Source: Escherichia coli
GTDB taxonomy: Bacteria; Pseudomonadota; Gammaproteobacteria; Enterobacterales; Enterobacteriaceae
Direction: 5' to 3' (one strand)
Assembly (NCBI RefSeq): GCF_003334405.1
Contig: NZ_QOWM01000079.1
Length of the DNA: 206 nucleotides
Position numbers and translations under genes: made by a program. Below are positions 44 through 119 of this stretch, piece by piece. The first letter of the stretch is position 1; each line of letters begins with the position of its first letter. The notes under the pieces were generated by a model. The model made no database searches. It saw nothing but the letters and a program-made list of their open reading frames with translations, and was not told the origin of the DNA.

Positions 44-72
44 GTAGGCCTGATAAGCGTAGCGCATCAGGC
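44..72 (-). repeat. Z-type REP (Z2-like), inverted relative to the Y REPs
   Basis: Reverse complement of 44-72 is GCCTGATGCGCTACGCTTATCAGGCCTAC. Imperfect palindrome: 48-54 GCCTGAT pairs with 66-72 ATCAGGC; inner GCG 57-59 pairs with CGC 63-65; AA bulge at 55-56; loop TAG 60-62. Same GCCTAC tail as the Y REP but read on the opposite strand. Confidence 0.75.
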
Positions 73-85
73 ATTTGCCACCACT

Positions 86-119
86 GCCGGATGCGGCGTG
101 GACGCCTTATCCGGCCTAC
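86..119 (+). repeat. Y-type REP, complete (GCCGGATGCGGCGTGGACGCCTTATCCGGCCTAC)
   Basis: Imperfect palindrome: 86-92 GCCGGAT pairs with 109-115 ATCCGGC; 95-98 GGCG pairs with 103-106 CGCC; loop TGGA 99-102; internal mismatch GC/TT at 93-94 versus 107-108. Matches the E. coli REP consensus as I recall it. Confidence 0.85.

Follow-up and report, generated by a model that had tools for sequence, protein, structure and literature searches.

The hairpin at positions 48–72 of the 206-nt stretch of Escherichia coli DNA analyzed in this study (referred to as the window) is an ordinary REP stem-loop, which may protect or truncate the message of the upstream gene and is not a true terminator. By analogy with other REPs, we consider it reasonably probable that this Z1-type stem-loop contributes to a larger element, the REP23/yahH array, which acts between the genes yahG and yahI as a barrier to exonucleases and as a partial attenuator. 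The short T-run behind the hairpin consists of the first bases of a 13-nt linker between repeat units and is not the driver of any transcript end. The identity and anatomy of the array, the orientation of the neighboring genes, the variation in unit number and the poor quality of the tail were observed directly. Both the hairpin and the array were already known: stabilizer and attenuator roles of REPs and BIMEs are long established, and the locus is in print as REP23, a BIME in the putative yahDEFGIJ operon (Neuhaus et al. 2016).

The window corresponds to positions 339858–340063 of E. coli MG1655, lies under yahH and is 100% identical to many E. coli chromosomes. It had matches in 5425 of 5426 complete E. 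coli genomes, at a median of 19 places per genome. In K-12, 421 nt separate the stop of yahG (339743) from the start of yahI (340165). Both genes belong to the co-directional series yahD-E-F-G-(H)-I-J and lie on the + strand. The original prediction had tied a transcript end at the hairpin to an upstream gene that is read from left to right, which is the case for yahG. Location of both flanking genes on the − strand had been named as an observation that would speak against such an end. As neither gene is on that strand, this objection does not apply.

Tandem Repeats Finder resolved 3.9 copies of a 93-nt unit, which nearly fill the yahG–yahI gap; the window alone comprises 2.2 copies with 95% identity. 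According to motif dissection of the + strand, the K-12 array is a fourfold succession of a Y REP, a spacer, an inverted Z REP and a linker, with eight REPs in total (four Y and four Z1). The parts of the 93-nt unit are the Y REP read from head to tail (GCCGGATGCGGCGTGAACGCCTTATCCGGCCTAC), a spacer of 16–17 nt (GAATGGCGCAAGAATCT), the inverted Z REP (GTAGGCCTGATAAGCGTAGCGCATCAGGC) and a closing 13-nt linker that reads either ATTTGTCACCATT or ATTTGCCACCACT. The window opens on the + strand with the 3′ part of a Y REP (1–26, ending in CCTAC), which begins 8 nt before the window (window positions −7 to 26; 2993–3026 of the K-12 locus L001). A 17-nt S-like tail-to-tail spacer from Y to Z (27–43) leads to the first Z1-type REP, which is 29 nt long and inverted (44–72, − strand). 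The full Z REP unit exceeds the originally noted span, as it comprises GTAG at 44–47 in addition to the stem-loop at 48–72. It is followed by the first head-to-head linker (73–85, with TTT at 74–76), which is found between units only. The next unit starts with a complete Y REP on the + strand (86–119; stem-loop at 86–115 and CTAC at 116–119, as placed by folding and dissection) and continues with the S-like tail-to-tail spacer GAGTGGCGCGAGAATCT (120–136), a second Z1-type REP identical to the first one (137–165, − strand; GTAG at 137–140, stem-loop at 141–165) and the second head-to-head inter-unit linker (166–178). The 5′ part of a further Y REP (179–206, + strand; L001 3179–3212) is cut by the window end.

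Two features of the K-12 array lie just outside the window. On its 3′ side, the fourth spacer (L001 3213–3228) carries a 1-nt deletion (GAGTGGCGCGAGAATT as opposed to ...GAATCT), which breaks the 93-nt register and closes the yahH frame; several other alleles end with a unit that has this 16-nt spacer form. Upstream, in the region of the yahG stop codon (L001 2884–2900, MG1655 about 339741–339757), the first Y REP stem of the K-12-type allele begins 13 nt after the stop (TGA CCTACATGTTCAT GCCGG). REPs within 15 nt of a stop codon have been reported to stall terminating ribosomes and to lower translation (Liang et al. 2015, via RepRanger 2025). As the distance from the yahG stop to the first Y stem is 13 nt in K-12-type but 23 nt in UTI89-type alleles, such ribosome stalling, if real, would be allele-specific.

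The hairpin at 48–72 has the sequence GCCTGATAAGCGTAGCGCATCAGGC, and the same 25-mer was read at 141–165. Both copies are directly followed by ATTTG (73–77 and 166–170), as originally noted. Folded as + strand RNA, the segment closes a 3-nt loop with an inner stem of 3 bp, which an AA bulge separates from an outer stem of 7 bp. The free energy is −11.5 kcal/mol (z = −3.2), a stability that none of 200 dinucleotide-shuffled sequences reached. Together with the GTAG foot, this fold confirmed the Z-type REP hairpin that had been proposed for 48–72. The − strand of the segment showed a comparable stability (−12.4 kcal/mol), and the Y stem-loop at 86–115 was far more stable (−21.3 kcal/mol). Because of its recurrence with the 93-nt period, the near-universal matches in E. 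coli and the wide occurrence of its 21-nt core, we conclude that 48–72 is a real hairpin far beyond chance. When the whole window is folded to minimum energy, the arms pair between different copies and not hairpin by hairpin. Hence, local formation of the hairpins is a kinetic (co-transcriptional) expectation.

REPs are defined as imperfect palindromes of 20–40 nt whose stem contains a mismatch or a bulge and is preceded at its foot by a conserved GTAG (Ton-Hoang 2012). Positions 44–72 agree with this definition by their GTAG at 44–47, the 7-bp and 3-bp stem segments and the AA bulge. The repetitive and intergenic nature of the unit was evident from a census, in which species-representative genomes were scanned with the 21-nt Z core and at least 120 loci were found; the sampled genomes are non-independent and mostly represent E. 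albertii, Pseudocitrobacter and Citrobacter, plus one E. coli genome. Among the matches listed, 98 of 100 scored copies flanked at least one gene on its 3′ side. The consensus of the 126 copies listed consists of Y, a 34-nt linker with the IHF-like sequence TGCAAATTCAATATATTG, Z, and then AATTTTGCGTTTGTCATCAG. In the matches listed (census loci L009–L128), the flanks of Z1 were conserved well past the palindrome, in the order GTGcGcTTTGTTcnT-Y-AAAAtcnTGCAAATTCAATATATTGCAGaaAcCtT-Z1-AATTTTGCGTTTGTCATCAGtCTCA. An exact enterobacterial Z1 core was also present on contigs of metagenome-assembled genomes labeled as Oscillospiraceae, Bacteroides and Bacteroidales (L011, L048, and L049), which are most likely mis-binned Enterobacteriaceae DNA.

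By published definition, a BIME-1 is composed of y, z1 and a long L linker with an IHF site (Ton-Hoang 2012), and REP325 is stated to be composed of Y and Z2. Since the Z unit of the yah locus (29 nt) differs from the 36-nt Z2 of REP325, and since its copies mostly occur in a Y-L(IHF-like)-Z context, we assign it to the Z1 type; this name follows from the published definitions and not from a consensus figure. The label Z2/BIME-2 was ruled out by the BIME-1 context in the census and by the distinct 36-nt Z2 of REP325. The array as a whole combines traits of different classes. It has the tandem copies (3.9 × 93 nt) and the short S spacer (16–17 nt) of a BIME-2, its Z units being Z1-type and not Z2, and it departs from BIME-1 in its tandem copies and in a 17-nt spacer without TGCAAATTCAATATATTG. 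Atypical BIMEs are chimeras of y, z1, z2, L, S, s, l, and r motifs, which are multicopy and vary in number between strains. As judged from its sequence, the array is an atypical BIME of Y, Z1 and an S-like spacer in tandem, with 0–5 units across alleles.

This architecture also bears on a role at the DNA level, in which the array would be a gyrase binding or cleavage site or a topological insulator and the hairpin a cruciform-prone DNA palindrome. The BIME-2 and atypical BIMEs that gyrase binds have the same tandem Y-S-Z arrangement, and gyrase cleavage sites are enriched in BIME-2, mostly at y units and independently of transcription (Sutormin 2019). However, the Z units of the yah array are Z1 and not Z2, only a subset of BIME-2 is cleaved and the claimed preference of cleavage is for the Y units over the Z hairpin, and no entry for yahG, yahH or yahI was found in the supplementary tables examined from the same study (Sutormin 2019). 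A gyrase-site role of the array, mainly of its Y units, is plausible, whereas we regard a function at the DNA level as an unlikely explanation of the element as a whole.

The strand on which the repeats are read matters for a further interpretation, according to which the − strand would encode a non-coding RNA that binds HU like naRNA4. The Rfam model RF02564 matched the − strand at window positions 47–116 and 140–206, with scores of 72.4 and 66.6 bits in the window and of 72–78 over the locus, which exceed the gathering score of 59.5. These matches reflect the common Y-linker-Z architecture, but the Z hairpin is 7 nt shorter here than the Z2 of the model, both flanking genes are encoded on the opposite strand, and the + strand scored 52.7, which is below the gathering score. 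Moreover, neither the window nor the gap contained a promoter-like site, the single match being on the − strand inside yahI, and the nucleoid-compaction role of HU and naRNA4 failed to reproduce (Harris 2026). Membership in naRNA4 was rejected based on the wrong strand and the Z1-type hairpin in place of Z2, and an HU-binding RNA from this locus appears extremely improbable.

All 206 positions of the window are located in the interior of the annotated + strand ORF yahH (b0322; MG1655 339769–340089 in K-12). If YahH were a real protein, the hairpins would reside inside a translated ORF. Both the K-12 annotation and PGAP list the ORF, and ribosome footprints cover it in EHEC (RPKM 56, coverage 0.61; Neuhaus 2016). 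A footprint-like signal may, however, also arise from structured RNA. Furthermore, + frames 1 and 2 are both free of stop codons across the window, and the annotations disagree on which of them is used: K-12 yahH is in frame 2 (VNALSGLRMAQES...), EHEC X002/yahH is in frame 1 (MRRERLIRPTNGARICRPDK...), and PGAP selects yet other starts. The length also varies between annotations. In alleles with two, one or no units, the ORF is frameshifted, pseudogenized or absent. The frames stay open over the array because 93 nt equal 31 codons, and yahH looks like a by-product of this repeat period. We therefore consider it highly improbable that YahH is a genuine protein.

Depending on the strain, the yahG–yahI gap carries 0, 1, 2, 3, 4 or 5 units, which are near-identical within one locus (unit classes were assigned by span, and one to two representatives per class were verified by sequence). 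The BIME-free allele was found in about 655 of the 5426 genomes (~12%), and about half of 60 evenly spaced ranking rows had the span lengths of the classes with no or one unit. The variation between 0 and 5 units and the ~12% of genomes that lack the element argue against a strongly selected role. These data raise the possibility that the array is a selfish or neutral repeat, kept in place and enlarged by RAYT (TnpA-REP) activity together with unequal recombination and not under selection for a function at this site. This scenario is in line with published copy-number variation and with the cleavage and recombination of BIMEs by TnpA-REP in vitro (Ton-Hoang 2012), and with the conservation of the Z1 flanks as parts of the repeat. 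It is, however, compatible with an incidental effect on the RNA, and the expression of tandem gene pairs with REPs between them is systematically biased. We thus regard neutrality as possible, but rather doubtful as a full account of the array.

A hairpin was also observed in the BIME-free allele (94 nt; L007 338–431, E. coli strain 755), where an 11-bp G/C-rich stem-loop (CCCUUCUCCCU-UCU-GGGGAGAGGGG) occupies the place of the REP array. Consequently, a stable stem-loop follows yahG with or without a BIME. This could hint that such a structure after yahG is useful, which would speak against a purely selfish repeat, but the z-score for the fold of the whole spacer was only −1.3. That the palindrome represents another repeat family was rejected, as each genome carries only one copy of it at megablast stringency.

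The original prediction had given weight to the T-run, which would make the hairpin a weak terminator-like structure. In such a weak intrinsic terminator, the Z1 hairpin and U74–U76 would release RNA polymerase at about position 76–80, and again at about 169–173 behind the second copy. The T-run after the first hairpin is genuine but short, with three T in the first 8 nt. Tails were scored by the TransTermHP formula (Kingsford et al. 2007; cut-off −2.5, best possible score −7.15), which yielded −2.72 for the first linker (ATTTGCCACCACT) and −2.93 for the second (ATTTGTCACCATT), with three to four T in 8 nt. These values just pass the cut-off, as does the hairpin score of about −5.8 relative to the threshold of −2, and the tail is the best among all hairpin and strand combinations of the array. 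Yet, 12% of the positions in 42.5 kb of MG1655 scored at least as well as −2.72 (8–12% over both tails), and a scan for consensus terminators returned 0 sites in the window and 0 in the whole yahG–yahI gap. The site has neither at least five U in 8 nt nor a strong tail, an A separates the stem from the U residues, and when 44–80 is folded, the GUAG foot can base-pair with U75 and U76.

The distribution of the T-run among alleles does not support a function in termination either. ATTTG is confined to the junctions between units, and it is therefore absent from one-unit alleles such as that of UTI89; it is likewise absent from BIME-free alleles. After the terminal Z, the sequence is AGTCTGG in five of six BIME-bearing alleles and AATTTGG in the O145 allele. 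In the census, T-rich flanks at the head of Z1 were over-represented, with TTT within 6 nt of the head in 63 of 123 copies listed as compared with a background of 0.068, which would fit an intrinsic terminator. This flank is common, however, because a conserved flanking motif belongs to the repeat: the yah linkers agreed with the distal part of the Z1 head-flank motif at 9 of 12 positions, and the first linker of the window at 8 of 12. Where Z1 lies between co-directional ORFs, the matches listed comprised 17 copies in the orientation with the hairpin first and then the T-run and 21 in the opposite one (binomial p = 0.63), and the frequency of the T-run was 12/17 and 12/21, respectively (Fisher p = 0.51); these tests relied on crude ORF calls and on copies that are non-independent and unevenly sampled. 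As no orientation bias relative to the neighboring ORFs was detected, the T-rich Z1 flank was rejected as a mark of terminators.

The REP325 array provides a further argument. Truncated RNAs that are insensitive to bicyclomycin are produced by REP325 fragments of two to four hairpins (Harris et al. 2026), which fits intrinsic termination at REP hairpins. Nevertheless, no T-run follows any of the 12 REP325 hairpins when they are read in the direction of transcription, and their tails score between −1.56 and −2.01. Since REP325 attenuates 8–10-fold without T-runs, a T-run is not needed for this effect. Taken together, the T-run did not hold up as a meaningful feature: it is the start of a linker with a marginal tail score, it does not occur in one-unit alleles, and REP325 works without it. 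We therefore judge it quite unlikely that the site is a weak intrinsic terminator. A related scenario, in which the T-rich motif at the head of Z1 (AATTTTGCGTTTGTCATCAG, shortened in the ATTTGTCACCAT linkers) creates leaky, orientation-specific intrinsic terminators and the array of 0–5 units is a rheostat, seems very unlikely. If it were true, each junction would add a small probability of termination, and the ratio of yahI-yahJ to yahDEFG would be set by the E. coli lineage.

In contrast to the T-run, the other part of the original prediction, that REP hairpins can give stabilized 3′ ends or partial termination, agrees with the literature on REPs (Dar & Sorek 2018) and on REP325 (Harris et al. 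2026). REPs have been described as exonuclease-resistant 3′ stem-loops that define steady-state transcript ends, and 24% of the Rho-dependent 3′ ends are located at REPs (Dar & Sorek 2018). REP325 stabilizes the upstream yjdM and attenuates yjdN about 8–10-fold; its RNA appears as a ladder of hairpin-ended species, and Rho dependence was seen for the full array only (Harris et al. 2026). Among tandem gene pairs, those containing REPs had a median log upstream/downstream ratio of 0.96 as compared with −0.09 for controls, while REP effects were context-dependent and no global effect on half-lives was observed (Harris et al. 2026).

The yah array is transcribed on the + strand in EHEC, with a transcript RPKM of 87.7 over the ORF. 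In K-12 RNA-seq, the baseMean of yahG was 147 (Harris 2026 table). The 3′-end tables of Adams 2021 contain no entry for yahF, yahG, yahH or yahI, which may just reflect low expression. No yah entry was found in the supplementary data of RepRanger either. A transcript end at a REP hairpin of this locus is plausible by analogy, and a stabilizing and attenuating action of the array, as extrapolated from REP325 and other REPs, is the most likely one. According to this proposed mechanism, + strand read-through from yahDEFG toward yahIJ would transcribe the array, and the Y hairpins (about −21 kcal/mol) together with the weaker Z1 hairpins (−11.5 kcal/mol) would stop exonucleases that proceed from 3′ to 5′. 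Products of decay or termination of the upstream message would then end at the feet of the hairpins, and the whole array would lower the read-through into yahI. The three U residues would make a marginal contribution at most. The analogy with REP325 is weakened by the opposite polarity of the yah array relative to transcription and by its spacers. As these are not C-rich, Rho loading is less likely here, and the Rho-dependent component of REP325 action may not carry over to this locus.

These results have little consequence beyond a correct annotation of the locus. The T-run should not be entered as a terminator, and yahH is best handled as an ORF created by the 31-codon period. Automated annotation with Rfam would call non-coding RNA genes here, where only antisense homology to BIMEs exists. 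In addition, the natural alleles with 0–5 units would lend themselves well to testing how the effects of REP arrays on operon polarity depend on dose.

Compared with known systems, the site at 48–76 resembles a canonical intrinsic terminator in that a G+C-rich stem-loop is followed by U residues on the sense strand. It differs by having only three U, a tail score of −2.72, no A-tract and no call in the terminator scan. REP325, which is located between yjdM and yjdN in E. coli K-12, shares with the yah array the alternating Y and Z palindromes, the short spacers and the co-directional flanking genes. Like REP325, the yah locus is a multi-hairpin array between such genes with transcription across it, the RNA in this case being from EHEC. 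The two arrays also have in common a period of about 93–100 nt, but REP325 consists of six units as opposed to four in the yah array, contains Z2 (36 nt) where the yah array has the Z1 type (29 nt), and is of the opposite polarity relative to transcription. The two arrays also differ in their transcribed spacers, which are C-rich in REP325 (C/G 2.11) but have a C/G of 0.86 in the yah array and thus lack the C-rich, G-poor composition expected for partial Rho dependence. On the transcribed strand of REP325 (L130 5743–6399, MG1655), the C-rich and G-poor spacer AAAUUCCCGCACCCUCC follows every Z2 hairpin. It is plausible that this spacer is a repeated rut-like element, which would fit the reported Rho dependence with the full array only.

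REPs that stabilize mRNA, such as those between malE and malF, are likewise intercistronic hairpins with a predicted exonuclease block (Newbury 1987, via Dar & Sorek 2018). Stabilizers of this type have one or two hairpins, in contrast to the eight of the yah array. BIME-1, also termed RIP/RIB elements, share with the yah array the Y and the short Z unit, and the flank of the terminal yah Z (AGTCTGGCGTTGGTCATAAC) agrees with the BIME-1 flank AATTTTGCGTTTGTCATCAG at 14 of 20 positions, but BIME-1 are single units with a 34-nt L linker and an IHF-like site, whereas the yah array is a tandem with a 17-nt S-like spacer. A strict BIME-2 requires Z2, whereas the yah array carries Z1-type units. Like BIME-2 and atypical BIMEs (Bachellier; Ton-Hoang 2012), however, the array is made of tandem copies with a short S spacer, its units are alike within the locus, and their number varies between strains.
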